DNA from: Acidobacteriota bacterium
Lineage (GTDB): Bacteria > Acidobacteriota > UBA6911 > RPQK01 > JAPXNP01
Direction: 5' to 3'
Assembly (NCBI GenBank): GCA_037388505.1
Contig: JARRKC010000013.1
Coordinates: forward strand, 9,999 to 73,998
DNA length: 64,000 nucleotides
In this document: positions 6,984-64,000 of the stretch, one piece after another
How positions within the stretch are numbered: position 1 is the first letter of the stretch
Layout of the letters: each line of letters starts with the position of its first letter
Program-made: the position numbers and the translations under genes
Notes under the pieces: generated by a model
The model's input: only the letters and a program-made list of their open reading frames with translations
Databases searched by the model: none
What the model was told of the DNA's origin: nothing

Positions 6984-6987
6984 CGGA

Positions 6988-8592: not shown

Positions 8593-8594
8593 GG

Positions 8595-9959
8595 ATGACG
8601 TTGAAGATCGGCAATGCACAAGGATTCTGGGGCGACGATCCCGACGCGCCGGCGCGTCTCGTAAGTCAGCAGAGCGACCTCGATTACGTCACGATGGACT
8701 ACCTGGCCGAAGTCTCGCTGTCGATCATGGCGGCACAGCGGGAACGGAAGCCTGAGCTCGGCTACCCGCGCGACTGCGTGGAGGCGATCCGCTCATTGGC
8801 CCCTTTCTGGAGGACCGGTCGCCGCATCCGCGTGGTGACCAACGGAGGCGGGCTCAACCCCCGGGGTTGCGCTGAAGCGTGTGCCGCGGCCTTGCGCAAG
8901 GACGGCTGCAAAGGGCTGAGAATCGGGATCGTCTCCGGCGATGACATTCTCGAGAGGATGCGCCGCCTGATCCGGGAGGGCTCGTCCGTCGATCTGATGC
9001 GCAACCTGGAGACGGGAGAAGGCATCGATCGGATCTCGGAACGTCTGGTCACGGCCAACGCCTACCTTGGGGTCGACGGAATCGTGCGGGCCCTCGAATC
9101 CGGCGCCGATATCGTTCTCACGGGAAGGGTCACGGACTCCAGCCTCGTTTGTGCTCCCTGTGTGCATCACTACGGCTGGAAGACGACGGAATACGACAAG
9201 CTGGCCGGAGGTCTGGTGGCGGCCCATGTAATCGAGTGCGGCATCCAAGTCTCCGGGGGAATCTCGACCGACTGGCTGGAGGTCCCCTCGCCTGCCGATA
9301 TGGGATTCCCCTTCGTGGAGGTGGAGCAGGACGGCACTTTCGTGGTGACGAAGCCTGACGGTACCGGAGGCTGTGTCACCGAACAGACGGTCAAAGAACA
9401 GCTCCTGTATGAGATCGGGGACCCCGAGCGATACCTGACTCCCGAAGCGACCGTCTCCTTCCGTGACATCGAGGTTCGGCAGGAAGGAACCGACCGCGTT
9501 CGGCTCTGGGGATTCCGAGGATCGGCGCCTCCTTCGACCTACAAAGTCAGCGCCAGTTACCGGGATGGCTTCTGGGCGCAGGGGACCCTGACGATCTTTG
9601 GCCGAGACGCCCTGGAAAAGGCCGAGCGCTGCGGTCGAATCGTGCAGGAACGGGTTCGCCGTGCCGGCTATGACCTGGAGGGCTTCGAGGTCGAATCGTT
9701 GGGAAGCGGCGCCTGCGCACCGGGCGTTCTGCCGGCGACCGAGTTGCTCGAAACCGTGCTTCGCATAGCGGTTCGCGATTCGCGTGAGGAGGCAGTGGAG
9801 CGATTCTGCCGGGAACTGACTCCCCTGGTCACCTCAGGGCCCCAGGGCCTCACCGGCTTTTCCGCCGGGCGCCCGCGACCGAGCCCGGTCTTCGGCTACT
9901 GGCCGTGTCTGATCCCGCGGGACATGGTGTCGGTAGATGTCGAGATCCTGGAGGTCTGA
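8595..9959 (+). CDS. atuA: AtuA-family protein (DUF1446, acyclic terpene utilisation)
   Basis: N-terminus MTLKIGNAQGFWGDDPDAP matches the DUF1446 start pattern. Translationally coupled to the neighbouring genes. Confidence 0.7.
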   Translation: MTLKIGNAQGFWGDDPDAPARLVSQQSDLDYVTMDYLAEVSLSIMAAQRERKPELGYPRDCVEAIRSLAPFWRTGRRIRVVTNGGGLNPRGCAEACAAALRKDGCKGLRIGIVSGDDILERMRRLIREGSSVDLMRNLETGEGIDRISERLVTANAYLGVDGIVRALESGADIVLTGRVTDSSLVCAPCVHHYGWKTTEYDKLAGGLVAAHVIECGIQVSGGISTDWLEVPSPADMGFPFVEVEQDGTFVVTKPDGTGGCVTEQTVKEQLLYEIGDPERYLTPEATVSFRDIEVRQEGTDRVRLWGFRGSAPPSTYKVSASYRDGFWAQGTLTIFGRDALEKAERCGRIVQERVRRAGYDLEGFEVESLGSGACAPGVLPATELLETVLRIAVRDSREEAVERFCRELTPLVTSGPQGLTGFSAGRPRPSPVFGYWPCLIPRDMVSVDVEILEV

Positions 9960-9960
9960 G

Positions 9961-10269
9961 ATGCGTCTTGGAGAGATTGCTTACGCACGCAGTGGTGACA
10001 AGGGTTCCGCGGCGACCCTCGCGATCTTCGCTCGCCGTCCCGAGGACTTTGGCCGGCTCGAGAGGGTCGTGACGGCCGAGAGGGTGCAGCGCTTCTTCGA
10101 ACCCATGGGATGCGGGCCCGTTCGCCGCTTCTCTCTGCCGAAGCTGCAAGCCCTCAACTTCATCCTCCCCGAGGTTCTGGCCGGCGGCGGCAGCCGCTCC
10201 CTGCGTGTCGATGCCCAGGGCAAAGCCATCGGCCAGGTAGCCCTCGAGATGGAGGTCGGTGATTTGTGA
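9961..10269 (+). CDS. DUF4387 (AtuA-associated C-terminal ferredoxin-like domain protein)
   Basis: 102 aa; ATG 1 nt after the AtuA stop. Has the YARSGDKG motif typical of the small protein encoded next to DUF1446. Confidence 0.55.
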   Translation: MRLGEIAYARSGDKGSAATLAIFARRPEDFGRLERVVTAERVQRFFEPMGCGPVRRFSLPKLQALNFILPEVLAGGGSRSLRVDAQGKAIGQVALEMEVGDL

Positions 10270-10315
10270 TTCGGCGGAGCTGGGAGCTCGAAGCTGGAAT
10301 AGGGGGGGCACAATC

Positions 10316-11083
10316 ATGACCGAGCAGCTGATTTTGATCGATCGTCCGAAACCGCAAACCACCATCCTCACGCTCAATCGGCCTGAGAAGCGAAATGCCC
10401 TCAACCTCCCTCTCATGGAACAGCTCTGTCTCCGTCTCGAGGAGCTGTCGAAGTCCGAGGCTTGTCGAGCGGTGATCCTCCGTGGGGCCGGACCCGTCTT
10501 CTGCTCCGGACTCGACCTGAAAGAGGGACTGGATACTACTCTTGCGGAACGCTCGGGTGAAATGGTGGCCCGAACCTTCCGAACACTCAGTGAGAGCCCG
10601 AAAGTGATCATCGCTGCGGCACACGGTGCCGCCATTGCCGGTGGAGGCGGCCTTCTGCTTGCCTGTGACCTTGTCGTCGCCGGCGACGATCTGCTCGTGG
10701 GTTTTCCCGAGGTGCGCCGTGGCCTCGTGGCGGGTCTGGTCATGGCGTATCTTCGCCGGCGCGTGAGAGAAATCGAGGCCAATGAACTGCTTCTCGGCGG
10801 AGAGCTGGTCGACGCCCCGCGCGCTCGCGAAATGGGACTGGTGAACCGGATTGTCTCGAGCGATCGACTGATGGCCGAAGCGCATCGGCTTGCCGCAGCG
10901 GTCTCCGAGGGGGCGCCCCAGGCCCTTCGGACGACCAAGGAGTTCCTACGTTCGCTCTGGCCGCACTCGCTGGAGGCGGATCTGGAGCAGGCCCTGGGGA
11001 TCCACGGCCGGGTGCGACTCGGCGAGGAAGCACAGGAAGGCATGCGCGCCTTCCTGGAGAAGCGGAAGCCGTCGTGGCGGTGA
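10316..11083 (+). CDS. Enoyl-CoA hydratase/isomerase (crotonase family)
   Basis: Crotonase signature …LNRPEKRNAL… and oxyanion-hole region AAAHGAAIAGGGGLLLACDL. Confidence 0.85.
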   Translation: MTEQLILIDRPKPQTTILTLNRPEKRNALNLPLMEQLCLRLEELSKSEACRAVILRGAGPVFCSGLDLKEGLDTTLAERSGEMVARTFRTLSESPKVIIAAAHGAAIAGGGGLLLACDLVVAGDDLLVGFPEVRRGLVAGLVMAYLRRRVREIEANELLLGGELVDAPRAREMGLVNRIVSSDRLMAEAHRLAAAVSEGAPQALRTTKEFLRSLWPHSLEADLEQALGIHGRVRLGEEAQEGMRAFLEKRKPSWR

Positions 11084-11103
11084 GGGAAACAGGAATGGGA
11101 CCG

Positions 11104-11173
11104 ATAGGACGCATAGGACCTATGGAACGGCGCGAAATTCAAGCCTCGGTCCTATACGTCCTGTTTGTCCTAT
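11104..11173. repeat. Heptamer array: ATAGGAC x3 (9-bp period), 20-bp spacer, GTCCTAT x3 (9-bp period); putative operator upstream of the peptidase gene
   Basis: Seen in sequence: ATAGGAC 11104/11113, ATGGAAC 11122; GTCCTAT 11149, GTCCTGT 11158, GTCCTAT 11167. Shares the 16-mer ATAGGACCTATRGAAC with the array at 35002-35104. Confidence 0.4.
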
Positions 11174-11225
11174 TTCTCCTACTGGCTTATAGTCACCCCC
11201 TGGAAAACCGTTCAGGAGAATGATC

Positions 11226-13388
11226 ATGAAGAGACTGATGCTCACTTTGGCCCTCGTCCTGCCCTTACTGTGGACCAGTTGCACGATACAGGAGAGTGAG
11301 AAGCTCAACTACCCGACGGCCAGACGCGACGATATCGTCAACGACTACTTCGGGACCAAGGTGCCGGCACCTTACGAGTGGATGGAGGACCTCAACAGTC
11401 CGGAGGTCCAGCAGTGGGTCACCGCCGAGAACAAGCTGACGGACGACTACTTTTCCAAAGTCCCCATCCGGGGATGGATCAACCAGCGGTTGACCGATCT
11501 TTGGAATTATCCCAAGGCGGGCGTGCCCGATGAGGAAGGCGGCCGGCTCTTCTTCCGAAAGAACAGCGGACTGCAGAACCAGTCCGTCGTCTACGTCCAG
11601 GATGGCCTGCAAGGGGAGGCACGGGAGCTTTTGAACCCCAACGTGCTCTCACCGGATGGATCTCTTGCTCTGGCGGGCTACGTTCCTTCGCCCGATGGCA
11701 AGCTCCTCGCTTATCAGCTTTCCGAAGGAGGTTCGGACTGGCAGACCATTCACCTCCTGGATGTCTCCACGGGAAAGACTCTGGACGACGCCGTGCGTTG
11801 GGTGAAGTTCTCCGGCGTGGCCTGGACTAAGGACAATCGGGGCTTCTTCTACTCCCGGTACCCGGAACCGCCGCAAGGCAAGGCCATCAGCCAGCAGGTG
11901 ACCAACCAGAAGCTCTATTATCACCGGCTCGGTACGGCGCAGGACCAGGACAAGCTGATCTACCAGCGCGAGGACCTGCCGGGCTGGATCGTCGAGGGTG
12001 CAGTGTCCGACGACGGCAGGTACCTGTATGTCCTTCTGGTCAATGGAACGGCTCACATGAACGAGCTCTTCTACGCCGACCTCGGCAACCCCACCAAACC
12101 GAACATCGGCGCCAAGTTCCAACCTCTGTACACCAGGAACGACGCCCTCTATGAACCCGTAGGTGACGATGGCAATACTCTGTATCTTCACACCACGCTG
12201 GACGCCCCGCGCGGTCGGATCGTGGCGACCACGTTCTCCGACCCCTCGCCCGAGAATTGGCGCGAGGTCGTACCTCAGCGAGAAGGAGTCATCAGCGGCG
12301 CTCTGTTGGCCGACCGACAGATCGTCGTCCTCTCCGAGGTCGTGGCCAAGAGCCAACTGGAAGTTTTCGATGAGAAGGGGGAGCATCACCGGCAGATCGA
12401 TCTACCCGGCATCGGGTCGGTATCCGGACTCAGCGGTCATAGCGGATCTGCGGATCTGTACTTCGGTTTCACCTCTTTTCTCGCCCCCGGAGCCGTTTAT
12501 CACTACGATCTGAAATCGGATCAGCGTTCGACCTTCTTTGCACCCAAGGTCGACTTCGATGCTTCGAAATACGTGACCGAGCAGGTCTTCTACGCCTCCA
12601 AAGACGGCACGCAGATCCCCATGTTCATCACTCACATCAGGGATCTTCAGCTCAACGGCAAAAATCCCACTATCCTCTATGGATACGGCGGCTTTGACAT
12701 TACCGTGAGTCCCAGCTTCAACCCCATCTACCCGGTCTGGCTCGAGTTGGGCGGTGTCTATGCAGTGCCCAACCTGCGAGGCGGAGGCACCTACGGGGAG
12801 AAATGGCACCAGGCCGGCATGCTCGGCAACAAGCAGAATGTTTTCGACGACTTTGCCTGGGCCGCCAAGTACCTCATCGATCAGAAATATACGGACCGCG
12901 ACCACCTCGGCATCCAGGGCTATTCCAACGGCGGTTTGCTGGTGGGGGCCTCGATCACCGAGCATCCCGAACTGTTCGGCGCCGCCTACGCCGGAGCGGG
13001 GGTGCTCGACATGTTGCGCTATCAGCGCTTCTCCGGGGGCGACCTCTGGGCTCCCGAGTACGGCACCTCGGAAAACGAGGAGGCTTTCAAATGGCTGTAT
13101 GCCTACTCGCCGCTCCAGAACGTCAAGGATGGTGTTTGTTACCCGCCTACGATCATTACCACGGCAGACCATGATGACCGCGTCGTTCCCAGTCACTCCT
13201 ACAAGTTCGCCGCTGCCCTCCAGCACGCTCAGGGTTGCGACAACCCGGTGTTGATTCACATTGCGACCAACACGAGTCACGGCTACATGCCCACGGACAA
13301 GCGCATCTCCCAGACCGCCGACGTGTGGGCTTTCGAAGCCTGGAATCTGGGCGTCAAGCAGCCGCCCGCTTCGGCAGACGGAAAGTAG
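11226..13388 (+). CDS. Prolyl oligopeptidase (S9A prolyl endopeptidase), secreted/lipoprotein
   Basis: Beta-propeller N-terminal half plus alpha/beta-hydrolase C-terminus with catalytic Ser in GIQGYSNGGLLVGA, and Asp/His downstream. Signal peptide; AGGAGA SD. Confidence 0.9.
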   Translation: MKRLMLTLALVLPLLWTSCTIQESEKLNYPTARRDDIVNDYFGTKVPAPYEWMEDLNSPEVQQWVTAENKLTDDYFSKVPIRGWINQRLTDLWNYPKAGVPDEEGGRLFFRKNSGLQNQSVVYVQDGLQGEARELLNPNVLSPDGSLALAGYVPSPDGKLLAYQLSEGGSDWQTIHLLDVSTGKTLDDAVRWVKFSGVAWTKDNRGFFYSRYPEPPQGKAISQQVTNQKLYYHRLGTAQDQDKLIYQREDLPGWIVEGAVSDDGRYLYVLLVNGTAHMNELFYADLGNPTKPNIGAKFQPLYTRNDALYEPVGDDGNTLYLHTTLDAPRGRIVATTFSDPSPENWREVVPQREGVISGALLADRQIVVLSEVVAKSQLEVFDEKGEHHRQIDLPGIGSVSGLSGHSGSADLYFGFTSFLAPGAVYHYDLKSDQRSTFFAPKVDFDASKYVTEQVFYASKDGTQIPMFITHIRDLQLNGKNPTILYGYGGFDITVSPSFNPIYPVWLELGGVYAVPNLRGGGTYGEKWHQAGMLGNKQNVFDDFAWAAKYLIDQKYTDRDHLGIQGYSNGGLLVGASITEHPELFGAAYAGAGVLDMLRYQRFSGGDLWAPEYGTSENEEAFKWLYAYSPLQNVKDGVCYPPTIITTADHDDRVVPSHSYKFAAALQHAQGCDNPVLIHIATNTSHGYMPTDKRISQTADVWAFEAWNLGVKQPPASADGK

Positions 13389-13689
13389 GGAGCGAACTGG
13401 AGGAATTCTGAGGTTTGGGGTTTGCGATTTCGAGGGGGAACCGGACGCAGCACCGTGTCCCATGCGTGTGCCGCAGCTCCATGCTCGAAGCTCTTCGCCG
13501 ATTCCCGCATACGCCTACGATGGCGAGGCAACCATAGTAGAATCGACGATCGCCATCGACTCGACGCTTCTCGCGGCCTCAGTTAGACTGGGCATGGAAG
13601 GGACTTCCTGGAAGCGGCTCGATCCACCATAGGGGGTCCGAATACCAGGTGCCGAGTGCGCATGGGGCGAGTCTAGGAGCGTTGGGGGA

Positions 13690-16600
13690 ATGGAAACGAT
13701 GAAGCGCATAAAGCGAAGTCCTGAGGCTCGTCTCTCCGGATCAGCGAATCCGGTAAATGGCTCTTCAGACCAGCGGGGCAGCCACCTGATCGATTTCTAC
13801 CATCAGATTGCAGAGGGTGCACCCGACTGGGAATGTTGGCGAACCCCTGAGGGCAAGTGTGTCTACGTTTCTCCCTCTTGCGAGCGGATCACCGGGTATC
13901 GGGCTCAACAGTTCATGTCCGACCCTGAGCTGCACCTTTCCGTGATCCATCCTGAAGATCGTTCCCGCGTCGCCGCACATTTTTGCGAGTCAGGTGAGCT
14001 CGCAGATGCGGTTCCCCTGGAGTTCAGGATCCTGCATCGTAATGGGCAAGTCCGATGGGTGAATCATGTCTGCCACCCGATTTGCGATGAGCGCGGAAGC
14101 CTGATGTGGAGACGCGTGCTGCAACGGGATATCACGTCCTACAAAGCGGCCCAGCTGGCCCTTGCCGGACAGGAGAAACTCTTTCGCGAGTTGGCCGAGA
14201 ACCTGGAAGAAGTCCTGTGGATCGTCTCACCCGACTGGAATGAAGTGCTCTACGTCAGTCCGGCCTACGCCGAATTGTGGGGCCGCTCGTGTGAGGAGCT
14301 TCGGGTTTCTCCACGTTCCTGGCTCGATGCGGTCCTCGAAGAAGATCGGCCCCGAATCCTGTCGAACATCACCCGTGTGGCTCAGGAACCGCTACAGGGA
14401 TTGGCATCTGTGGAGTACCGTGTCCGCCGTCCGGATGGATCGATCCGTTGGGTGCGGGCGCGCGGCTTTGGGATCCACGATGAGACGGGCCGGATCCACC
14501 GCGTGGTTGGGATTGCCGAAGATGTCACCGACCAAAAGCAAGTCGAGAACGCCCTCCGCCGACGCCAGCAGGAATATCAGACCCTGGCCGGAAACCTGCC
14601 CGGACTCGTTTACCGAGTGTATTTGCAGGAGGGGAGCAGGATGCACTTCTACAACGATCTCCTCGAGCCGACGACCGGCTTTCGGGCCGAAGAGCTGACG
14701 ACCGGCGAAATCTGTTCGATCATTCGACTCATCGTTCCGGAGGATCGGGAGCGTGTCATCGAGACCGTGGAGGAGGCTGTCGAGAAGGAGCAGCCCTTCG
14801 ACATAAGCTACAGACTCGAGCGAAAGAACCGCGAGATTCGTCACATGAGCGAGCGCGGTCGCCCGATCCGTGACGAGAACGGGCGTCCACTCTACATCGA
14901 CGGACTCATCTTCGACGTCACGGATCAAATGCTGCAGGAGGAACAACTCCGGGAGAGAGAAGCTCAGCTGCGGGCTTTTTTCGATGCCAACGCCGTGTGC
15001 ATGAGCATCGTGGCGCTCGATGACGACGATCTCGTCTACGTGCGTCCCAACGAGACAATGGCGGCTTTCTACGGTCTGACGGCTACGACCTTGAGCGGCA
15101 AGCGCTGCCGAGAGCTGGGAGTCAGCGAAGAGACGCTGGCCGGCTGGATCGAGATGTTCGCGGAGTGCCTGCGAACCGGTGAACCTGTGTCCCGCGAGTA
15201 CAACTTCGGGTTGCATGGCCAGGAGCACTGGTATCACGGGACCATAAGCCCGATCTCGCTATCTTCCGACTCCCCCCTGTTCGCACTGGCGACCGTCGAC
15301 ATCACCGAACGCAAGAAGACCGAACAGGCTTTGCGCGAGAGCGAAGCCCGCTTCCGGGAGGTCCTCGAGAACGCTCTCGACGCCTCCTATCGTCGCGATC
15401 TCACTTCAGGTCGGTTGGATTTCATGAGCCCTGTCATCGAACAGATAACCGGATTCTCTCCGGAGGAAATCGCGGCACTTGACGTTCAACAGGGTCTGGA
15501 TCTCGTGCACCCCGATGACCGCCAAGCCGTGATCGGGGAGATCCAGAGGTCCGCCTCAGGCGAAGCCGGTTTCGTGGAATATCGGTTCCGTACCAAGAAC
15601 GGAGAGTACCGCTGGTTCGGTGACAAGATGCGAGTCGTCATGGCGGGTGGCGAGCCGCGCTACCGGGTGGGAGTCGTGCGTGACATTACGCACCGCAAGC
15701 AGGTCGAGGAAGCCCTGCGTCGTGCCAAGGATGAACTCGAGGAGCGGGTGCACCAGCGGACAAAGGAACTCGAACTGCGGGCAAACCAACTGGCACGCCT
15801 CTCTTCAGAGTTGACAATCGTCGAGCAGAGGGAGAGGCGGCGCCTGGCTCAGGTCCTTCACGATCATCTTCAGCAACTTCTCGTCGGGGCGAAATTCGGG
15901 CTCGACGTCCTTTCACGGAGAATCGGCCAGAAACACATGGACACGATCGGACAGGTGGAAGCGCTTCTGAACGAATCGATCAATACGGCCCGGTCCTTGA
16001 CTGCCGAGTTGTCTCCACCCATCCTCCATGAGGCCGGCCTCAATGCTGCTCTGGAATGGTTGATCCGGTGGATGAAGGAGAAACACGGCCTGACCGTGGA
16101 ATTCGACACCGACGAAGAAGTCCGTACCAGTCGCGAGGACATCCGGGTGCTCATCTTCGAATCGGTTCGCGAAGCCCTGCTCAATGTCGTCAAACATGCA
16201 AAGGTGACCCGGGCAAAGGTCAGCTTGACTCGTCACGACCCGGAACATCTACGGGCACTGATCAGCGATGAGGGTGTCGGTTTCGAACCCGGAGTTCTGT
16301 CCAACCGCGACGATTCGACGAAGGGCGGCTTCGGGCTGGTCAGCATGCGGGAACGTCTGAGATTAATGGGTGGCTCACTGGAGATCGAAAGCACCGCCCA
16401 CGAAGGCACGCGCTTGATCCTTACCGTCCCGATAGAGTCCCCGGCGGCGGTCATGGGCGAGGAGGAAGCAGAGGAGACTCGTGAAGAAGAGGGGGCTCAG
16501 CCCGAGACAGGACAACAGGCCGGTGGGGGAGGGAAATCCGCCAGGAAGGGTCGCATCCGTGTTCTGCTCGTCGACGATCATGTGGTGATGCGGCAGGGCC

Positions 16601-16917
16601 TTTCCATGCTGATCGGCGAGGAATCTGATATTGAAATCGTTGGAGAGGGATCCAACGGCAATGAGGCCATCGCTCTCGCCCGGGATCTCCAACCGGATGT
16701 CATCCTCATGGACTTCAGTATGCCCGAAATGAACGGGGTTGAAGCCACCCGGATCATCCATTCGGAACTGCCCAAGATCCGGATCATCGGGCTTTCGATG
16801 TATGAAGAAACCGACCGCGCCGCGGCCATGCAGGAAGCGGGGGCCGTTGCCTACCTCAGCAAGAGCGGCCGGTCGGATGCGCTTCTGCAAACCATCCGGG
16901 AAGCACGGACAGACTAG
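13690..16917 (+). CDS. Multi-PAS hybrid sensor histidine kinase (HisKA_3/HATPase_c) with C-terminal receiver domain
   Basis: Repeated PAS/PAC modules; H-box RRRLAQVLHDHLQQLL (HisKA_3, NarX-like); ATPase G-boxes; then REC IRVLLVDDH…DVILMDFSMPEMNG…. Confidence 0.85.
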   Translation: METMKRIKRSPEARLSGSANPVNGSSDQRGSHLIDFYHQIAEGAPDWECWRTPEGKCVYVSPSCERITGYRAQQFMSDPELHLSVIHPEDRSRVAAHFCESGELADAVPLEFRILHRNGQVRWVNHVCHPICDERGSLMWRRVLQRDITSYKAAQLALAGQEKLFRELAENLEEVLWIVSPDWNEVLYVSPAYAELWGRSCEELRVSPRSWLDAVLEEDRPRILSNITRVAQEPLQGLASVEYRVRRPDGSIRWVRARGFGIHDETGRIHRVVGIAEDVTDQKQVENALRRRQQEYQTLAGNLPGLVYRVYLQEGSRMHFYNDLLEPTTGFRAEELTTGEICSIIRLIVPEDRERVIETVEEAVEKEQPFDISYRLERKNREIRHMSERGRPIRDENGRPLYIDGLIFDVTDQMLQEEQLREREAQLRAFFDANAVCMSIVALDDDDLVYVRPNETMAAFYGLTATTLSGKRCRELGVSEETLAGWIEMFAECLRTGEPVSREYNFGLHGQEHWYHGTISPISLSSDSPLFALATVDITERKKTEQALRESEARFREVLENALDASYRRDLTSGRLDFMSPVIEQITGFSPEEIAALDVQQGLDLVHPDDRQAVIGEIQRSASGEAGFVEYRFRTKNGEYRWFGDKMRVVMAGGEPRYRVGVVRDITHRKQVEEALRRAKDELEERVHQRTKELELRANQLARLSSELTIVEQRERRRLAQVLHDHLQQLLVGAKFGLDVLSRRIGQKHMDTIGQVEALLNESINTARSLTAELSPPILHEAGLNAALEWLIRWMKEKHGLTVEFDTDEEVRTSREDIRVLIFESVREALLNVVKHAKVTRAKVSLTRHDPEHLRALISDEGVGFEPGVLSNRDDSTKGGFGLVSMRERLRLMGGSLEIESTAHEGTRLILTVPIESPAAVMGEEEAEETREEEGAQPETGQQAGGGGKSARKGRIRVLLVDDHVVMRQGLSMLIGEESDIEIVGEGSNGNEAIALARDLQPDVILMDFSMPEMNGVEATRIIHSELPKIRIIGLSMYEETDRAAAMQEAGAVAYLSKSGRSDALLQTIREARTD

Positions 16918-17055
16918 TCCCCACTCGCCTGAGTGACGCGGTCAGTCTCACCTCGTACGAACCCATCGGTTCCGACACCCGATTTGTCGTAGACTAGCCA
17001 CCGGACCCGGTGAGAAACCGGCTTCTGGCACTCACAGCCTGAGGAAGGAAACGCC

Positions 17056-18432
17056 ATGAGATCCTTGCTTCGATGCTCTCCCCTTTTCGCCTTGAGTCTC
17101 CCATTCCTCGCTTTCCAGACCACTTCGGCTCAACAACCGGGTCGGGCGTCTTCCTCCGAAGCCCAGCGGTTCGAGCTTCCGGCCACCGATGACGGTCTGC
17201 CCGGCGAGGGCCCGATCCGCCGGTACGACTGGTTTCGCGACCTCTGGCGAGAACGCCGAAGCGCCTGGTCCAAACAGGTCGAACAGGACCAGCGCGCACT
17301 GGTGTTCCTCGGGGACTCGATCACGCAGGGATGGGGTGACGACTTCGGGGGAGCCTTTCCCGGAGTCCACGTGGCAAATCGTGGCATCATCGGCGACACG
17401 ACACGCGGCATGTTGATTCGTCTGCAGGAGGATGTGCTGGCTCTGAATCCAAGCGGGGTAGTCCTGCTCCTTGGCACCAATGATTTGGAAGAGAACGCCG
17501 AACCGGAGACGGCTGCCGGCAACCTCGAGCTGATCCTGACGGAGTTGGAAAGCTACAGCAGGAAAATGCCGATCGTGCTGTGCCGGGTCTTTCCGAGTTC
17601 GCCTTCGAAAAATCGCCCTGCCGACAAGATTCGTGCCATCAACCGACTCTATGCTCGAGTTGTCGCGCACGACCCGCAGGTGACCCTCTTGGACACTTGG
17701 ACGTTGTTCGCTGACGATCAGGGCAATGCGAAAGCCGAGGAGTTCCCGGATCTGCTGCACCCGAACGCCGCAGGATACGCCAAATGGGCGGCTGCTCTGA
17801 GACCGATCCTGGCTACTCTCGGCTTCATGGATACTGAACCGGACAACTTCTCTCCCGAGCCGGGATTTGAAAGCCTTTTCAACGGTCGTGACCTGACCGG
17901 CTGGGGCTTCCGCCCGACGAGCCCGGAAGACATCGAGGCGCGCAACCATTGGCAGGCGACCGATCCGAATGCCGCCGCCTGGCCGGTCGTGACCAAAGCG
18001 ATGGTCCTCGACGGCCGAACGGCGAGTGACGATGGACGCTATGTGGTCGTCAACGGCCGCCTCGTCGTGACCACACCGCCGGAGGGGCGCCGCATCCAGC
18101 AGATCTGGACGAGCCGGGAGTTCCCAAGAGACTTTGTCTTGAGACTCGAGTTCCGCGCCACCCCGAATGCGGACAGCGGGATTTTCATCCGTGGACCACA
18201 ACTGCAGTGCAGGGACTACCTGCTGGCCGGTCCTTACAAGCAACTCCAGCACTACAAGCCGCAGCAGTGGAATCAGATCGAAGTGACGGTCAAGGGTGGC
18301 ATCGCTCGGGCCACCTGCAACGGTGAAGTCCTGGAAGAGGCGATGGAGGTCCCCTCCACCGGCCCGATCGGTCTGGAAGGCGATCGGGGCCAGATGGAGT
18401 ACCGTCACATCGAGATCCGCGAATTGCCCTGA
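17056..18432 (+). CDS. Secreted SGNH/GDSL hydrolase fused to DUF1080 (3-keto-disaccharide hydrolase-like) domain
   Basis: Signal peptide; FLGDSITQGWG (SGNH block I); C-terminal DUF1080-like jelly-roll (…FRDFVLRLEFRATPNADSGIFIRG…EYRHIEI…). Confidence 0.7.
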   Translation: MRSLLRCSPLFALSLPFLAFQTTSAQQPGRASSSEAQRFELPATDDGLPGEGPIRRYDWFRDLWRERRSAWSKQVEQDQRALVFLGDSITQGWGDDFGGAFPGVHVANRGIIGDTTRGMLIRLQEDVLALNPSGVVLLLGTNDLEENAEPETAAGNLELILTELESYSRKMPIVLCRVFPSSPSKNRPADKIRAINRLYARVVAHDPQVTLLDTWTLFADDQGNAKAEEFPDLLHPNAAGYAKWAAALRPILATLGFMDTEPDNFSPEPGFESLFNGRDLTGWGFRPTSPEDIEARNHWQATDPNAAAWPVVTKAMVLDGRTASDDGRYVVVNGRLVVTTPPEGRRIQQIWTSREFPRDFVLRLEFRATPNADSGIFIRGPQLQCRDYLLAGPYKQLQHYKPQQWNQIEVTVKGGIARATCNGEVLEEAMEVPSTGPIGLEGDRGQMEYRHIEIRELP

Positions 18433-18515
18433 CTGGACACCCGATCGGAACCGCGGCTCACTCCTTCCGGGGCCGAGCCGGCGGACGGTGGCCCCGCAGT
18501 GGAGATGAATCCTTG

Positions 18516-19841
18516 CTAGAAGCCGGTCTGAAGCGTGACCTGGACTCTGTTCTCTCCAGGAATCATGTCGGAACTGTGATTGGTTCGCTGATAGTCGACC
18601 AACCAGATGTTCCCTTTGTACATGCGCCAGGCAATTCCGGCGATGTAGCGGTGGGTAATATCCGAGTAGATCTCGGTGTCCGCGTTGAAGTCGTCAAAGC
18701 GGCCCAACACGCTGATCCTGCTCCCGAAATGCGGCGTTGGAATGTGTGCCGCAGCAAACAATGAGTATCCTCTCTGGCGTGCGGCCCTTCCGTCGGGAGC
18801 CAGTGCCTTGCCCGACTGGTTGCCTCTGCCTACGTATCCCTGAGCCGTGCCGGTGAAGAAGCGGCTCTCGTACGAAACCATCCCGTCGAAGCTTCTCCAG
18901 TTGGGGGGCTGCATTCCGTCTTCTACCGGCTGGTTCCCCTTGCCGACGATACCGAAAGCACTGAACTGGAGCCCCGGCACGACGTCGGGCAGCGGCCGGA
19001 CCGAGAGGCGACCCTCGAAGACTTTGTTCTTGTTCTGCTCGGCGGCATGATAGCCGCCGCCATTGTAGATCCCGGCCTGCCATGAGCCGTATCGACCGGC
19101 GTAGTGAGGATTCACTTCGGCCTTGTATTCGCTGCTCAGGGTTCCCCCGAAATCCGATCCGAAGAGCACTCCGGTGTCGGCGCTGTTGAAAACGCCGTTG
19201 CGCTCCAGAAACATCGTATCCTGCATGCGGTATCCGTTGATGGCTTCCTCGAAGTCCAGCCAGGGCATGTGCGCCAGGCCGAACTCCATGTAAGGGCCGG
19301 TGATGGCCTTGTTGCCCTTCCAGTGGAACTTGCCATAGATGTACTTGGCGCGCGGCTTCACATCGCCGGTCGAATCGACGGTGATATCGGTGACGAAGCG
19401 CGCGGTCAGGTAGGGCGTGACAGCGACGTCCGCTCCGAAGTATCCCCGTTTCAGAAGAAACGCGTTGTAGTCGCTGGTCTCATTGGGGACTCCGGAGTAC
19501 CTGGTTCCGTTCTGGTAGGACAAATAGAACAGCCCGATCGGCTTGAAGCTCCTCAAAGGTTCCGGTATTTCGGCTTTCACCGCTCCCAACTGCCCGCCGG
19601 ATCCGGTCGCCGCCTGGGGCGCGGCGGCTTGGCTCGCGGGTGGAGGAGTGCCGGATTTCTGTCGATTGTACTCGGCCTGCACCTGGGTGGCTTGAACCTG
19701 GGTGATGACTCCATTCTGAACAAGCAGTTTCAGCAGAGGATCCATGTTTTCAGAATCGGTCTGGGTAGTATCGGATGCGTAGACCATGCCCCAGAGGCAA
19801 AAAGCAAAGAGAATGCACGCCATGATCGTCTTCTTCATCAT
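18516..19841 (-). CDS. Outer-membrane beta-barrel porin-like protein
   Basis: Signal peptide MMKKTIMACILFAFCLWGMVYA, alternating amphipathic beta-strands, C-terminal …TLQTGF (aromatic terminal residue). The ATG at 19841 has a GGAGAGAAGGGAAG SD; the ORF-track start at 19943 is an upstream extension. Confidence 0.5.
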   Translation of the reverse strand: MMKKTIMACILFAFCLWGMVYASDTTQTDSENMDPLLKLLVQNGVITQVQATQVQAEYNRQKSGTPPPASQAAAPQAATGSGGQLGAVKAEIPEPLRSFKPIGLFYLSYQNGTRYSGVPNETSDYNAFLLKRGYFGADVAVTPYLTARFVTDITVDSTGDVKPRAKYIYGKFHWKGNKAITGPYMEFGLAHMPWLDFEEAINGYRMQDTMFLERNGVFNSADTGVLFGSDFGGTLSSEYKAEVNPHYAGRYGSWQAGIYNGGGYHAAEQNKNKVFEGRLSVRPLPDVVPGLQFSAFGIVGKGNQPVEDGMQPPNWRSFDGMVSYESRFFTGTAQGYVGRGNQSGKALAPDGRAARQRGYSLFAAAHIPTPHFGSRISVLGRFDDFNADTEIYSDITHRYIAGIAWRMYKGNIWLVDYQRTNHSSDMIPGENRVQVTLQTGF

Positions 19842-47450: not shown

Positions 47451-47498
47451 CTTGACTCCGTTACACATGTCACTTAAGCTTCCGTTACACGGGTAACG
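47451..47498 (+). promoter_or_regulatory. Putative blaI promoter with TACA/TGTA-type operators (TTGACT-N17-TAAGCT; palindrome CGTTACAC-GGGTAACG)
   Basis: -35 TTGACT 47451-47456, -10 TAAGCT. ACATGT-centred half-site in the spacer. Perfect 6+6 inverted repeat CGTTAC…GTAACG at 47483-47498, 5 nt before the blaI ATG. Confidence 0.4.
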
Positions 47499-54158: not shown

Positions 54159-54545
54159 TCACATGTAATTGACGAGTCGCAGTTGGGGAACCCGTTCGAA
54201 ATGACCCTGATCCGACGTCACCAGCTCGGCCTCGGCTTCGAGTGCCGTCGCCGCAATCAGGATGTCAAAGTCCCCGATGCTTTTCCCCTGCCGGCGCAGA
54301 TACCTGCGGACACGACTCCCTATCCTGCAGACATTCTCATTGACCTCGAGTCTGACGAAAGGCTCCAGAAAGTCCTCGCCGTCTTTCGTTCGCTCGTAAC
54401 CTTCGAGGAACTCGAGCATGCTGATGACTGAGATGGCAAACTCATCATCCTCATGGAGTGTGAGGAATTGTTGCGCTGGACCCGGCTCTCCGGCCGCAAG
54501 CTCCCGTTGCAGATCAATCAGAAAGGTGGTGTCGAGAACCTTCAT
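54159..54545 (-). CDS. vapC: VapC PIN-domain toxin
   Basis: MKVLDTTFLIDL… with acidic PIN residues. ATGA overlap with the upstream antitoxin. Confidence 0.8.
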   Translation of the reverse strand: MKVLDTTFLIDLQRELAAGEPGPAQQFLTLHEDDEFAISVISMLEFLEGYERTKDGEDFLEPFVRLEVNENVCRIGSRVRRYLRRQGKSIGDFDILIAATALEAEAELVTSDQGHFERVPQLRLVNYM

Positions 54546-54802
54546 TTCGTTGGATCCTGCTTCCATCGTGAAGGGCTTGCGGTGCGGACCTGCTCGACAC
54601 CGCCCTTCCAGTACTCCAGAGCCCGGCGATCCGCCTGTTTCACCCCTCGATTCCGCAACGCTCGCAGAACCGACCGACCCGACGCATCTGGAGGTCCGAA
54701 ACGGGCTCGCCGCACCACCTCGGAAAAGGACTCACCAGGTCTCTTGGCGGAGCGAAGCTTCTCGTAGGCGTCAAGCTCGAGGGAAATGGTCTTCGTTGAC
54801 AT
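54542..54802 (-). CDS. vapB: VapB-type antitoxin
   Basis: MSTKTISLELDAYEKLRSAKRPGESFSEVVRRA…; 87 aa. TATTAT -10-like hexamer 7 nt upstream of the ATG (possible leaderless mRNA). Confidence 0.65.
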   Translation of the reverse strand: MSTKTISLELDAYEKLRSAKRPGESFSEVVRRARFGPPDASGRSVLRALRNRGVKQADRRALEYWKGGVEQVRTASPSRWKQDPTK

Positions 54803-54971
54803 GCATGAAATAATACACGAAACTGTCTCAGTTCGCTCCAATTTCGTCCAAACGCGGTGACACACCAAAACCTCTGCCTCTGAGCCTCCCTTGAAAAGCC
54901 TGGCCCCGTTGCGCACTCGTGAATAGACCCCAGAGAGGCCTGAGAATCGTGTGTTTGTAGCAACTTACAAA

Positions 54972-55024
54972 GGTGAAAGGGACAGACTGATTCTCGGTTG
55001 GTGAAAGGGACAGGCTCGTTCTCG
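54972..55024 (+). repeat. Tandem pair of a ~25-nt locus-specific repeat (GGTGAAAGGGACAGRCTSRTTCTCG)
   Basis: Copies at 54972-54996 and 55000-55024; see also 56692-56748, 61262-61284 and 61971-62144. Confidence 0.7.
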
Positions 55025-55098
55025 CTCCCCCTTGGGACTTCCCGGGATCTCCGGAGCGGATGGGTCGCGGCGCAATCTCAAGACATCCGCAGCCGGCC

Positions 55099-58435: not shown

Positions 58436-61243
58436 CTACCTGGCCCTACGGTGCTGCAAAGCCCGGAGGATGGCATCGATCACATCGTCAAGATGCTTTC
58501 CGAGATCTTGCGCAAGGAATCGCAGTACCAGATAGCCGTTCTCCTGCAGCAGATAGTCCTTGCGGCGATCGCGACGATAAGCGTCCGTGTCGGCGACGTG
58601 TTGGGGGCCATCGACTTCGAGGACCAACCTGGACTCAGCACAGAGGAAGTCCACCTCCATCGCTCCCCGTCCGTCGAAGGGGATCGGCAATGTCACGTTC
58701 AGTTGAAACCGCCCGGCGGTCTGGGGGAGCGTTTCCAGACGCCGGAAAAGGAAGGCCTCACTGCCACTTCGAGCCCGGCCGACCTCCGTCGCATCGGCGG
58801 ACGGAGTTCTGGTTGCGCGGACGAACAGATCGGCCAGCGGCTTATCCACGCCGTCTCGAACCAGCCTCCGGACACTGGCTGCATAATCCTCTTTCCAATC
58901 GGGATCGACGGGGAGCGACACGTCTGTGGGCCAGCCGGGCAACGCGTGGGCCGGCAGGATGATCTTGTATCCCGCCGCCTCGTAGCCTTTGCAGCGTCGG
59001 TCGAACATCCGCGCCAGCATAGGCACGTTCAGATCGGCATAGTCATAGACTCGAACTTCACGCTTCCTTTCATGCAGACGATGGAGCCGGCCGAGATACT
59101 GTGCGATCGTCCCCCGCCACGAGACGGGAAGAGTTAGAAACAGAGTATCCAACCGGGCATCGTCGAATCCTTCTCCGATGAAGCCACCGGTCGCCAAGAG
59201 AACACGCTCCTCAGTCTCCGGGATCGCGGCCAGCTGGGCTCGTGCTTCCCGAAGGGCCTTGCGTCCCATGCCGCCCCTCAACGTGACCAAGTGCGTCACT
59301 CGATCCGACAACGCCCGAGCCAGGATATCGAGATGCTCGTTGCGTTCGGTCAGAACGATGGGCGAGCGACCTTCTCGGACCGTCTGCACGACGTCCTCAC
59401 AGATGGCGCGGTTTCTTCTTTCATCGACGGTCAACTCATCATAGAGATCCTGAAATCGCAATCGGACATCGGGATCCGCAGGTCGAAGCGCACGAAAATC
59501 CGTAGGACGAACCAGCACCTTATGATCGAAGGGACGTCGGGCAGCCTGCCTTCTGGGATCCACGCGGTATCGGATCGGACCGCACTGCATGAAAATGATG
59601 GGATGGTGGCCGTCCTTGCGGATGGGCGTCGCCGACAGGCCGAGCACGAACTTCGACTTCGCCTCACGTGCAGCCAATTCGAAGCTGTGTGCAGGAATGT
59701 GGTGGCATTCGTCGACGATCAAATGGCCATATCGGCTCACGAGGTCGTCGACCTCCCCCTTGCGGACCAGGCTCTGGATCACCGCCACGTCCAGGAGACC
59801 CGTGGGCTTCTTTCGTCCTCCGCCGATGGTACCGATGCTCAACCTGGAAAGGCCGAGGAACGAGCTCAGTCTCTCGACCCACTGCTCGAGCAACTGTCTC
59901 CGATGAACGATCACCAGGGTATTGACACGGCGCCGGGCGATCATCCACGCGGCCACGACCGTCTTTCCGAAAGCCGTCGTCCCGGACAGCACCCCGATGT
60001 CGGAGACCAGCAGCGCGTCGGCGGCGAGCTTCTGCTCCGGCCGCAGGCGGCCCTGGAATTCGACATCCAGCGGCTCACCGCAGTAGCGTTCCTCCCGGAT
60101 TGCGGTTTCGATCCCAAGATCGGAGAGAAGCTGCATCAGGTCCTCCAAACATCCCCGTGGAAGGCCGACGTGCCGCGGGTAGTCTCGGGCACATCCGATG
60201 ATGCGAGGTTTGCGGAAGGTGGGAAGCCGCATCGCCTGGGCCCGGTAGAACTCGGGGTTCTGAAAGGCAGCCAGACGGATCAACCGGTTACGTAAGGCTG
60301 GCGCCAAGTCCTCTTTGGGAATGAAGATCTCATTTCCCAGAACGATCTCGAGCCGTTCCGGCAGCGGACCCGTGACGGGTGGGCCGACCCATCGGCGTGA
60401 CGGAGACGTCTTCCAGGGAGTCGCATCGTCGTCATCGGGCGCGAGGCGCACGCCGAGGATTCTCCCGCGGGCTTCCGCTTCGTCGACAACCGCTTCCACT
60501 TCAGCGCGCGTCATCTTCCGGATTTTCGACAGGAAGCTCCACTGATCCGAATAAGGAACAAACTGGTCGTCAACAAAGACTGAGTTTCCACCTTCCCTGG
60601 GTCCCTTTTGAAGGGGAAGGGCGATGAGATTGCCGAATCCGCCCTTCGGCAGGGTATCCTGATTCGGAAAGAGACGATCATACGAATCCAGGCCGATGTC
60701 CGGGCAACGCTCCATGGTTTCGGTCAAGATGAATGTGCCGAGCGAACGTGCCATTCGCGCGGGAATCGACTCATCGAAGAAGAACCACACATGGGCGCCG
60801 CCGCCGGACCGCGAGCGTTCCATGGCTGCCGGAAGATCAAACACGCGGCAGGTCTGAAGGAAGGCCAGTGCGTCCTCCTGCCAGTTCTCCTTGTCGAAGT
60901 CGGCAGCCAGAAAGAAGCAGGTTTCGTCCCGGAGCATCGGGTAGACGCCGACTACGCAATCCTGTTCCCGATCGTCTCGTCCCTCCAGATGGAAGCGGAT
61001 GACGTCGTCCGTCACGGCCAGAAAGCGCTGATGTGGACAGCGACTGCATTTGATCTTCGGCTTCTCGCACACGCCGGCCACCCACTCGTTCCCACAAGCC
61101 GGAGAGTATCCGGACCGGCCCGTCCTGCGGCTTTCGAATCGCCGCGGATACACGTCCTCGCGTCCTCGGAACAAGGACCGAAAGAGCGCGATCTTTACTT
61201 CCGGAGGAGAATGAAGATCGACGGCTAACGGCACTTCATCCAC
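58436..61243 (-). CDS. Multidomain protein: Zn-ribbon + archaeo-eukaryotic primase-polymerase (Prim-Pol) + XPB/Rad25-like SF2 helicase + C-terminal DUF559 (Vsr-like endonuclease fold)
   Basis: AEP motifs I FLAADFD, II SGGGAHVWFFF, III GLDSYD. Helicase motifs I GTTAFGKT, II VDECHH, III LSATP, VI QYLGRLHR. DUF559 …LVLEVDGPQHV…YRRDRRKDYLLQENGYLVLRF…. Confidence 0.8.
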   Translation of the reverse strand: MDEVPLAVDLHSPPEVKIALFRSLFRGREDVYPRRFESRRTGRSGYSPACGNEWVAGVCEKPKIKCSRCPHQRFLAVTDDVIRFHLEGRDDREQDCVVGVYPMLRDETCFFLAADFDKENWQEDALAFLQTCRVFDLPAAMERSRSGGGAHVWFFFDESIPARMARSLGTFILTETMERCPDIGLDSYDRLFPNQDTLPKGGFGNLIALPLQKGPREGGNSVFVDDQFVPYSDQWSFLSKIRKMTRAEVEAVVDEAEARGRILGVRLAPDDDDATPWKTSPSRRWVGPPVTGPLPERLEIVLGNEIFIPKEDLAPALRNRLIRLAAFQNPEFYRAQAMRLPTFRKPRIIGCARDYPRHVGLPRGCLEDLMQLLSDLGIETAIREERYCGEPLDVEFQGRLRPEQKLAADALLVSDIGVLSGTTAFGKTVVAAWMIARRRVNTLVIVHRRQLLEQWVERLSSFLGLSRLSIGTIGGGRKKPTGLLDVAVIQSLVRKGEVDDLVSRYGHLIVDECHHIPAHSFELAAREAKSKFVLGLSATPIRKDGHHPIIFMQCGPIRYRVDPRRQAARRPFDHKVLVRPTDFRALRPADPDVRLRFQDLYDELTVDERRNRAICEDVVQTVREGRSPIVLTERNEHLDILARALSDRVTHLVTLRGGMGRKALREARAQLAAIPETEERVLLATGGFIGEGFDDARLDTLFLTLPVSWRGTIAQYLGRLHRLHERKREVRVYDYADLNVPMLARMFDRRCKGYEAAGYKIILPAHALPGWPTDVSLPVDPDWKEDYAASVRRLVRDGVDKPLADLFVRATRTPSADATEVGRARSGSEAFLFRRLETLPQTAGRFQLNVTLPIPFDGRGAMEVDFLCAESRLVLEVDGPQHVADTDAYRRDRRKDYLLQENGYLVLRFLAQDLGKHLDDVIDAILRALQHRRAR

Positions 61244-61786: not shown

Positions 61787-61970
61787 GGGTCTCCTTCTCC
61801 CGCAGACAGGCTGGAGGAATCCCTGTCAGGTGCAATTACTCTGTCAGGTGTTGAGGAAGGAATGGACTTGACCCGTGTCCCGTGCTGCTTGAAGTCGTCA
61901 ATCATGAACGTAGCGTTTCAGATGCCGTAACAAGAGACCACATCGGAGCCGTCTTCAGCTTGCCGTGCAG

Positions 61971-62144
61971 CCTGTCCCTTTCCTACGTTCCTGACCGCGT
62001 AAACGAGGCTGTCCCTATTTCCGTCCTGTTGTCTCCTGCCTTTACCTTTCGCCCCGGCTGCAGTCTGTCCCCTTCCCCTGCCCGCGCTCGCGTGAATGAG
62101 TCTGTCCCCTTCTTCCGTCGTGAAGGAGTCTGTCCCTTTCTTGG
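61971..62144 (-). repeat. Array of five copies of the GGGACAG repeat (plus-strand form RGYCTGTCCCYTTYC) within a 780-bp non-coding gap upstream of dinB_2
   Basis: Copies at 61971-61983, 62008-62022, 62063-62078, 62098-62116 and 62126-62144 (spacings 37, 55, 35, 28 bp), all in the same orientation and inverted relative to the copies at 54972-61284. Confidence 0.7.
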
Positions 62145-62563
62145 TCATTGGGCGGATACCGAGGAACGGGATCCGAAGGGGAGATCCACGGAGAGGCCAA
62201 GTCACCGTGAGCCTTCCTCACCTCTGTCCCCTCCTCGTGGCCCAATATGCAACTCGTTCAGTCCACACCGGAAGCCGACCTCAGTTAGGATTCCGAGGGT
62301 GTGTTGCCGAAATCGTCTAGATCCTGCCTCGGCCTTGTCCAGTGTTCGTCGAGACTTGCTGAATCGATTCCTACGCTAAGCTCACCGAGGGCCTTAAGAC
62401 AGAGAAATCCTTTGCGTGAGATCGAGCCGGCGAGGTTCCGCATGCGCGCGAAGTGTCCAACCAAGCCGGGGCTGAAACCATTTGGGCAAAACGCCCACGG
62501 ACATCGAGCTGCTCCTGAAAGGATCACCAACCTGGTCAAGTCGAGCGTGGCGACTCTCGCGCA

Positions 62564-64000
62564 TCACGAGGTCGCCAGATGGGCGACGGTATAAGAGCGT
62601 GCCGGCAGCTTGAAGGTCATCCTCGCACCCGCCTGCGGCGCATCGAGCTTGCTCGGAACGACCAGATTCGGCTGATCGAAGGTGTTGAGCGCCTTCAGAT
62701 CCCCGCCGGTCAGCGTCTCGCAGGCCAGAACGCTCGTAGGGGTCGGATCCCGCCATTCGAGGATCAGTTCCCTCTCCGAATCGAGATCCCGATTCAGCAT
62801 GAATACCGATGCCTGGCCGTTCTTCCGGTCCATCGTTGTCACAACGTCCAGGTACGGCACGTCATCGTTACGAGCGAAATCCGCCTGCAAATGACCTGCC
62901 CTGATCGGATAGGTCTCGGATTCTACTTCCAAGTCGAGCACTCGCCCATTGGCGTACTTAAGTGCCCAGGCGAACGGATAGTAGATCGTCTGCTTGAGGA
63001 CCGAAGTCTCATTGGTCATTAGCGGCGCAATCACGTTGACGAGCTGAGCCAGGCAAGCCACTCGCACGCGATGCGACTCCCGCAGGAGCGTGTTCACGAA
63101 TCCGCCGACGAGCAGTGCGTCTTCGAGGTTATAGGGCTCCTCCAGGAGGTGAGGTGCAAAGGTCCGCTCGCCGTCGACGAAACGTCCGTTACGAGCACGA
63201 TACCAGACATTCCATTCATCGAAGGAAAGCCAAAGCTGTTTGGGAGATTTGCGCAGCCCCTGGACATAGTCGCAGACCGCGATGATTTCCTGGATCTGTT
63301 TCTCCATGTCGAGATTCATCGCAAGGTAGCGCGAGGTGTCGTTCCCTGACAGTTCGGGTGTGTTGCCGTAGTAGTTGTGCAACGAGATGCCGTCGACCAG
63401 ATCGAAACACTCCTCGAGCACCTCGCGGTCCCAAGTGAGGTAGGTGGGCATGTTCGTGTTGCTCGATCCACAGGCGATCAGCTTGGCATTGGGGGTGGTA
63501 ACGCGAATCTGCTGAGCGGCATCGCGCGCTTTGCGGCCATACTCGCGCGCCGGCATGTGGCCCATCTGCCAAGGCCCATCCATCTCATTGCCCAGACACC
63601 AGTACTTCACGTTCCAGGGCTTTTCGTAGCCGTGCTGACGCCTCAGGTCGCTCCACTTCGTACCCTTCTCGATGTTGCAGTATTCGGCCAGGGCCGCAGC
63701 GGATGCAGGTGTGCCCGTGCCGAGATTGAATCCAAGCAACGGCTCCGTGTTGACCAGTTGACACCACTGCATGAACTCATTCGTGCCGAACTGGTTGGTT
63801 TCAATCGAATTCCAGGCCTTTTCCAAGACGGTCGGGCGCTGATTCTTTGGTCCGACACCGTCCAACCAGTTGTAGCCGGAGACGAAGTTTCCGCCGGGGT
63901 ACCGAATGATCGGGACACCCAGTTCCTTTACAGCCGCCATCACATCGCGGCGGAAGCCGTGTTCATCGGCCAGAGGGGAACCCGGCTCGTACACGCCTTC
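62564..64000 (-). CDS. Alpha-L-arabinofuranosidase, GH51 (5' end beyond window)
   Basis: Collinear with GH51 AbfA (…YEPGSPLADEHGFRRDVMAAVKELGVPIIRYPGGNFVSGYNWLDGVGP…, catalytic …CLGNEMDG…). About 35 N-terminal residues lie outside the window; the ORF-track M at 63994 is an internal GTG. Confidence 0.8.
   Translation of the reverse strand, partial: EGVYEPGSPLADEHGFRRDVMAAVKELGVPIIRYPGGNFVSGYNWLDGVGPKNQRPTVLEKAWNSIETNQFGTNEFMQWCQLVNTEPLLGFNLGTGTPASAAALAEYCNIEKGTKWSDLRRQHGYEKPWNVKYWCLGNEMDGPWQMGHMPAREYGRKARDAAQQIRVTTPNAKLIACGSSNTNMPTYLTWDREVLEECFDLVDGISLHNYYGNTPELSGNDTSRYLAMNLDMEKQIQEIIAVCDYVQGLRKSPKQLWLSFDEWNVWYRARNGRFVDGERTFAPHLLEEPYNLEDALLVGGFVNTLLRESHRVRVACLAQLVNVIAPLMTNETSVLKQTIYYPFAWALKYANGRVLDLEVESETYPIRAGHLQADFARNDDVPYLDVVTTMDRKNGQASVFMLNRDLDSERELILEWRDPTPTSVLACETLTGGDLKALNTFDQPNLVVPSKLDAPQAGARMTFKLPARSYTVAHLATS

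Follow-up and report, generated by a model that had tools for sequence, protein, structure and literature searches.

The analysed stretch of DNA (64,000 nt; hereafter, the window) contains a 777-nt gap, 61787-62563, extending from the start codon of a DinB-family gene (61786) to the stop codon of a GH51 gene (62564), both on the minus strand. According to Pfam scans, the genes in 53-64 kb encode SfsA, VapBC, OmpA-like, TlpA-like redoxin, TOTE, DinB and GH51 proteins, and there are no rep, par, integrase or transposase genes among them. The following genes adjoin the gap or lie close to it:

58436-61243, minus strand: TOTE conflict-system gene (935 aa), the second conserved anchor of the locus; 70.5% amino acid identity to the gene in locus L215
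61295-61786, minus strand: DinB-family gene (PF05163, E 1.5e-27)
62564-63994, minus strand: GH51 alpha-L-arabinofuranosidase gene (abfA), a conserved anchor; ~80% nucleotide identity to relatives L205 and L206, ending at 62564

The gene called dinB_2 in the earlier note on this DNA encodes a DinB/YfiT-type protein (PF05163) and not DNA polymerase IV. The TOTE protein combines an AEP primase-polymerase domain (E 2.4e-98), a ResIII/DEAD helicase and a DUF559 nuclease-like C-terminus. We found no credible gene in 61787-62563. Neither the 165-aa ORF (61882-62379) nor the further ORFs of 95, 84 and 97 aa have a Pfam match, and the gap can indeed be described as gene-free. By contrast, its size, considered unusual in the earlier note, is ordinary, because crude ORF calling gives further gaps of 590-990 nt within the window.

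The repeat array and its copies elsewhere in the window

A ~22-nt unit recurs in the gap in five good copies and a further, degenerate one, all with the same orientation. In other words, the five same-orientation copies reported earlier upstream of dinB_2 are real and are joined by a sixth. On the minus strand the unit reads GAAAGGGACAGRCTSNTTC (~22-nt form GAAAGGGACAGRCTSNTTCNCG, short form GGGACAGRCTSNTTC). On the plus strand the 14-mer AGYCTGTCCCYTTC occurs at 61969, 62006, 62062, 62099 and 62127, giving start-to-start spacings of 37, 56, 37 and 28 nt; the core of the degenerate copy, CTGTCCC, is at 62224-62230 and runs in the same direction as the other five. The repeat consensus is gA.AAAGGGACAGRCTS.TTC, with the core RGGGACAG followed by RCTSNTTC. 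All copies in the window are given below, with scores from a PWM whose training set consisted of units from other genomes only:

54973-55024, plus strand: pair A, two copies 28 nt apart, between the OmpA-like stop and the vapB start; 30.1 and 28.7 bits
56692-56748, plus strand: pair B, two copies 33 nt apart, in the divergent OmpA-like/redoxin region; 20.1 and 24.4 bits
61262-61285, plus strand: solo copy C, inverted relative to the D array, between the DinB stop and the TOTE start; 17.9 bits
61961-61984, minus strand: D1, the copy nearest to DinB, GGAAAGGGACAGGCTG...; exact 14-mer match at 61969-61982
61998-62021, minus strand: D2, GAAATAGGGACAGCCTCGTTTACG; 19.1 bits
62054-62077, minus strand: D3, GGGAAGGGGACAGACTGCAGCCGG; 12.3 bits
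62091-62114, minus strand: D4, AAGAAGGGGACAGACTCATTCACG; 22.2 bits; forms a 28-nt tandem pair with D5
62119-62142, minus strand: D5, AAGAAAGGGACAGACTCCTTCACG; 29.5 bits
62213-62236, minus strand: D6, degenerate; core GGGGACAG, then AGGTGAGG

The 14-mer has 14 matches at two or fewer mismatches in the whole window, compared with 2.95 +/- 1.75 in shuffles (0 of 100 shuffles reach 14), and nine window copies score 12-30 bits with the PWM, whereas shuffles give 0-1 matches. The 11 copies, all intergenic, fall within 54.9-62.2 kb as one monomer, two dimers and a six-copy cluster. The remaining 56 kb of the window has no copies, despite ~20 gaps longer than 100 nt (crude ORF calling). Outside the gap the unit has the plus-strand reading GAAAGGGACAG at three places. 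The core is GGGGACAG in 3 of the 11 copies and AGGGACAG in the other 8. Neighbouring copies form 28-nt tandem duplicates at 54972/55000 and 62091/62119, and D4 together with D5 (62090-62140) makes up an inverted copy of the 54975-55025 pair (51 nt, 76% complementary). Tn7- or Mu-like ends were considered for these inverted 51-nt two-copy modules (54975 and 62090), but there is no transposase between them, no target duplication, and further copies lie inside.

The distribution of copies bears directly on the proposal that the array represents promoter architecture of a damage-inducible gene. An operator or promoter specific to the DinB gene would be consistent with the position of the array, 175-450 nt upstream of DinB on the coding strand, and with the direct repeats CACCTGACAG located 46 and 64 nt before the ATG. 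Nonetheless, we regard this explanation as very improbable. The unit is not confined to the dinB gap but is also present at 54.97, 55.00, 56.69, 56.73 and 61.26 kb, where it adjoins vapB, OmpA-like, redoxin and TOTE genes in both orientations. No repeats were found near three DinB homologues (54-57% identity) in six contexts; for the same reason we rejected the idea of DinB as a recurrent passenger of repeat brackets. Moreover, relatives L205 and L206 have the array without DinB, and the gene itself is of the DinB/YfiT family rather than Pol IV. Work from the Erill lab reportedly identified a GTTC-N7-GTTC LexA box in an Acidobacterium. This box, which is that Acidobacterium's and may not be the host's, shows no enrichment across the window, with 74 matches where 65.7 are expected; the gap contains a one-mismatch match only, with no exact box. 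The spacing is unsuited to a sigma-54 or ECF promoter. As for the CACCTGACAG repeats, they correspond to two exact CTGTCAGGTG direct repeats, 18 nt apart, at 61823-61850. Such direct repeats show no window-wide enrichment, and the pair could be either a real DinB operator/promoter element or degenerate GGGACAG-like copies.

Another suggestion of the earlier note was that the gap encodes an sRNA. A small or sponge RNA with repeated purine-rich (AAAGGGA) or pyrimidine-rich (UCCCUUU) motifs would fit the strong composition skew across the array (GC skew -0.24, AT skew -0.3), and the motif, read by eye, resembles a Shine-Dalgarno or A(N)GGA sequence. However, Rfam gives nothing at gathering score for the gap, with chance-level matches only at E up to 10. 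Structure prediction, which had been proposed for both strands, gave folding energies of -277.2 kcal/mol for one strand (-281.1 +/- 6.5 in dinucleotide shuffles, z +0.61) and -257.7 kcal/mol for the other (-270.6 +/- 7.1, z +1.83), so that neither strand folds better than shuffles. Simple scans found no promoter-like or terminator-like sites within the gap, the sole terminator-like site being inside the DinB gene. Copies also occur in both orientations relative to genes, and conservation of the core is explained by the link to Y1 genes described below. Taken together, these results make an RNA gene highly unlikely. We also rejected a CsrA-type sponge, a Shine-Dalgarno mimic and a Rho-loading site (inconsistent gene orientation, no transcript signals found), as well as a per-unit hairpin, the conserved part of which would be a GAA...TTC 3-bp closure only, without covariation. 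A search for inverted repeats inside the array found none; Tandem Repeats Finder reported nothing for the gap.

The comparison with an iteron or binding-site array is only partly justified. The copies are probably protein recognition sites, so loosely the comparison stands. Iterons of a plasmid or integrated replicon origin, or centromere-like arrays, do share with the window same-orientation direct repeats of ~20-22 nt in non-coding DNA. Yet there is no rep, par or integrase gene in 53-64 kb, the spacing is irregular (28, 37 and 56 nt), and the unit is scattered at four other sites here and at many dispersed sites per genome across many genomes. Of all the alternatives, we consider this one the least credible by far.

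Related loci and the Y1 gene

L205 and L206 are the two closest relatives with long contigs (AbfA 90% identical). Nucleotide homology between them and the window does not extend beyond the stop codon of abfA, and the gaps that follow abfA in the three genomes cannot be aligned apart from the repeat cores. Even so, the gap after abfA carries three copies in L205 and six in L206, oriented relative to abfA as in the window. Thus, with regard to the conservation in relatives that the earlier note asked about, the array and its orientation are retained, whereas the gap sequence is not and DinB is absent there. The copies in L205 and L206 have the form GAAAGGGACAGAGTGCTTC and belong to a sister sub-type, GGGACAGAGTGCTTC, while the window has the RCTSNTTC sub-type. 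After the array, at the place where the window has DinB, both relatives have a gene for a 298-aa protein. This protein matches PF01797 (Y1_Tnp) with 29.1 bits (cut-off 23) and, partially, the NCBIfam REP_Tyr_transpos (REP-associated tyrosine transposase), and contains the motifs H-Y-H and Y-I-E-T-N. In the 64-kb window, tblastn detects no homologue of it. Likewise, the internal sequence of the Y1 unit is missing from the window, and the ~20-nt termini alone are present. DinB is bracketed by inward-facing copies, that is, C on the plus strand and array D on the minus strand, so DinB sits where the transposase gene sits in the relatives. The DinB encoded on a 1.2-kb contig, L120, is 93% identical to that of the window. 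Where the window has one copy between DinB and TOTE, this contig has two, 21 nt apart, and its end lies 43 nt upstream of DinB.

Further arrays are present in both relatives. L206 has ~20 copies in 21.7 kb (for example, at 3571-3806 and 17775-19130), and in L205 they occur within 5389-17164, where the surroundings of the abfA locus also encode DDE transposases and a group II intron reverse transcriptase. Judging from this content, the abfA region in L205 and L206 is an apparent mobile-DNA hotspot. TOTE orthologues in L206 and L215 are also near repeat arrays or Y1 units. Metagenome versions of one locus differ in copy number (L173 versus L184/L153; L129/L131/L185; three versus two copies, 27-nt period), and this one-unit difference is further evidence for what appears to be expansion and contraction of the arrays. 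In metagenome contig L171, Acido-Lenti-1 RNA motifs (RF01687) occur at 2430-2475 and 4121-4167 on the minus strand (46.2 and 31.9 bits), each 25-75 nt upstream of a GGGACAG copy. As an explanation of the repeats this RNA was rejected: it is found beside copies in that one metagenome locus and is absent from the window.

Association of the repeats with a Y1/HUH protein family

We collected 199 loci (119 genome and 80 metagenome) chosen solely for two nearby copies of AAAGGGACAG or AAAGGGACAGRCT. According to tblastn, a homologue of the 298-aa protein lies beside the repeats in 33 of them, or in 35 loci when L205 and L206 are included. In 30 of the 35, copies on the same strand are found upstream of the Y1 gene; in ~20, the nearest one starts 41-65 nt before the ATG, just ahead of a TTGACA- or TAGACA-like box; and in ~10, there are inverted copies downstream of the gene. 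Host records include Acidobacteriota, many Verrucomicrobiota (Akkermansia muciniphila among them), Gammaproteobacteria and, more weakly, Clostridia. It should be kept in mind that this sharing of the core across phyla was found by searches requiring that core. Therefore, what counts as independent evidence is that a homologous protein recurs next to the repeats and that the geometry is fixed, not that the core recurs. No arrays were found in viral contigs, and a literature search by raw repeat sequence returned primers only. With respect to flanking genes, arrays across the loci are oriented in every way (33 sense, 20 antisense, 24 convergent and 20 divergent by crude gene calls), and ORF-based classification of context is too noisy to say more than that they occupy all kinds of intergenic regions.

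In eleven homologues (290-367 aa), the catalytic His-x-His and Tyr residues are invariant, as are Trp, Arg and Asn. Among PDB structures, their profile matches E. coli TnpA_REP best (4ER8, E 2e-4) and IS200/IS605 transposases next, and the JGI label for family members is 'REP element-mobilizing transposase RayT'. Most JGI contigs with family members are only 1-2 kb long, as expected if assemblies break at repeats on both sides.

A particularly informative case is an Acidobacteriota contig (the same as L030) with two copies of the Y1 unit, L214 and L215, 17 kb apart. Over 1,218 nt the two share 99.67% identity, from 1 nt before GGGACAGACTCGTTTTTC (GGGACAG) to 103 nt past the stop codon, where the sequence ...GGATTCGTCCA is no more than a degenerate inverted copy. 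Their flanking sequences are not related, and no target duplication is seen. This pair is evidence that the predicted Y1 unit moves and that the repeat is its putative terminus. In L215 the Y1 unit is the divergent neighbour of the TOTE gene related to that of the window. The window sub-type, GGGACAGRCTSNTT, is present in L213, L214, L215, L098, L003, L022 and L030, and copies of it flank Y1 genes in L213, L214, L215 and L072.

Comparison with known systems and interpretation

RayT-like genes with terminal inverted repeats (TIRs) instead of REP hairpins have been described as TIRtrons encoding TIRYTs (Di Nocera et al. 2013, PMC3733652). Many of these TIRs share GGGGWSAS and sit at similar distances from the gene, in some genomes they constitute moderately abundant families occurring as dimers or clusters, and an Acidobacteria group of TIRYTs was singled out (PMC3733652). 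In a later classification of Y1 proteins, TIRYTs were equated with subclass 2.1, and no associated repeats were found for subclasses 2.1 and 2.3 (Quentin et al. 2018, PMC6006769). The repeats studied here resemble TIRtrons in several respects. The window cores GGGGACAG and AGGGACAG fit GGGGWSAS (consensus in PMC3733652 and PMC6006769), copies flank RayT-like Y1 genes at similar distances (in related genomes rather than in the window), and away from the gene copies occur as monomers, dimers and clusters. On the other hand, the window locus is an orphan cluster without a transposase gene, mostly same-orientation arrays of 2-6 copies replace the single inverted pair, and the associated proteins are long (290-367 aa) with wide HuH-to-Tyr spacing. 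By description, as opposed to subclass HMMs, these proteins are like subclass 2.3 in their length, in the ~100-110 residues from HuH to Tyr and in the motifs NH[FY]H, W[EAG] and Y[IV][DE]LN.

REP/BIME sequences and REPtrons (RAYT/TnpA_REP, 4ER8) are similar in that short intergenic repeats are tied to a domesticated-looking Y1/HUH enzyme, copies are clustered and variable from strain to strain, and contigs often break at them. However, the window unit is neither a palindrome or hairpin nor self-complementary, its consensus has no GTAG or CGTC tag, and the arrays are head-to-tail instead of alternating inverted REPIN pairs. IS200/IS605 elements also have a Y1/HUH transposase, with its promoter just inside the left end, and the 1,218-nt unit likewise shows no target-site duplication. 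Unlike in IS200/IS605, the protein here is twice as long and has extra domains, the tyrosine motif is Y-x-x-x-N and not Y-x-x-x-Q, clear subterminal hairpins and a tnpB partner are lacking, and solo ends accumulate in arrays. In any case, the window locus does not hold an autonomous IS200/IS605-like or TIRtron element: there is no Y1 gene, and DinB lies between the ends.

Based on these comparisons, we propose that the gap array is an orphan cluster of putative terminal recognition sequences from a TIRtron-type mobile element, and we would put the probability of this at about 75%. Such a TIRtron would be a ~1.2-kb unit encoding a RayT-like Y1/HUH tyrosine transposase (TIRYT), with a GGGGWSAS-type core at its termini. 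Comparative data show that the unit sequence of the window matches the putative left terminus and the flanking copies of Y1 units in other Acidobacteriota, that in relatives the predicted Y1 gene directly follows the orthologous array, that the window has the ~20-nt termini only, and that copy number varies among close strains by gain or loss of one unit. A plausible scenario is that a Y1 unit formerly followed abfA and that its gene was lost or replaced by DinB in the window lineage. The copies might then owe their formation or upkeep to a Y1 enzyme that is encoded at another place in the genome and acts in trans, together with local slippage. Since related genomes carry the Y1 gene at the same spot, the array would represent mobile-DNA debris or landing sites and not a DinB switch. 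It would have no dedicated role in DinB control and may instead mark a recombination-prone junction.

The main rival explanation, which is compatible with a mobile-element origin, is takeover by the host. The copies would now function like REP elements, as signals for transcript ends, insulation or mRNA stability, or else as operator sites by which a Y1-derived protein controls genes nearby. The array persists downstream of abfA in three genomes despite fully diverged spacers, the copies near Y1 genes keep a fixed distance just upstream of the -35-like box, and the window copies fill four consecutive intergenic regions. The persistence of the array in diverged genomes and the restriction of the window copies to 7 kb might each indicate a function for the host and not mere debris. 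Against this, the copies have no consistent direction with respect to neighbouring genes, either in the window or, by crude gene calls, at the other loci; scans and folding of the gap revealed neither terminator-like sites nor stable structures; and strains differ freely in copy number. On balance, we think that host takeover is unlikely, if less so than the DinB-, RNA- and replicon-based explanations.

Returning to the terminal sequences of a mobile element, it is possible to go one step further, albeit only tentatively. The 10-13-nt core AAAGGGACAGRC might serve a clade of long (~300-340 aa) Y1/HUH proteins as their common terminal recognition sequence, and head-to-tail solo termini might act as landing or recombination pads that swap the bracketed gene; we would hold this extension to be doubtful, though more probable than host takeover. 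DinB would then have replaced the transposase gene between the inward-facing copies, beside the TOTE defence gene. The clade would span Acidobacteriota, Verrucomicrobiota, Gammaproteobacteria and other groups, and would resemble the subclass without associated DNA repeats in the 2018 survey.

For the annotation of the window, the consequence is that a tempting false lead is removed: there is no need to invoke an SOS-type control region, an iteron set or an sRNA gene. The proposed origin of the array would also explain why the abfA-TOTE junction differs in every relative examined. More generally, the collected loci connect a single short, conserved core with a large branch of RayT-like Y1/HUH proteins that has received little study. 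The fixed position of the core before the gene and the recently duplicated 1.2-kb unit starting exactly at the core provide a concrete substrate for enzymes with putative DNA targets.

Several minor features of the window are worth pointing out. Between the repeat copies, the minus strand of 62040-62092 has a run of G-tracts (GGG ca GGGG aa GGGG ... GGGG); on this purine-rich strand the stretch might form a G-quadruplex. Directly downstream of pair A lies a VapBC-type toxin-antitoxin pair (PIN toxin and VAPB antitoxin; 54159-54803, minus strand). Genes in 53.5-58.3 kb have a third-position GC of 0.62-0.65, compared with 0.70-0.79 in the rest of the window, which suggests that this segment was acquired. 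Finally, two TCCGTTACAC(A/G)(T/G)GT(C/A)AC copies 24 nt apart (47457-47497) are present in a 321-nt gap upstream of a 1007-aa ORF at 47605, and may be regarded as a candidate pair of binding sites unrelated to the gap repeats.
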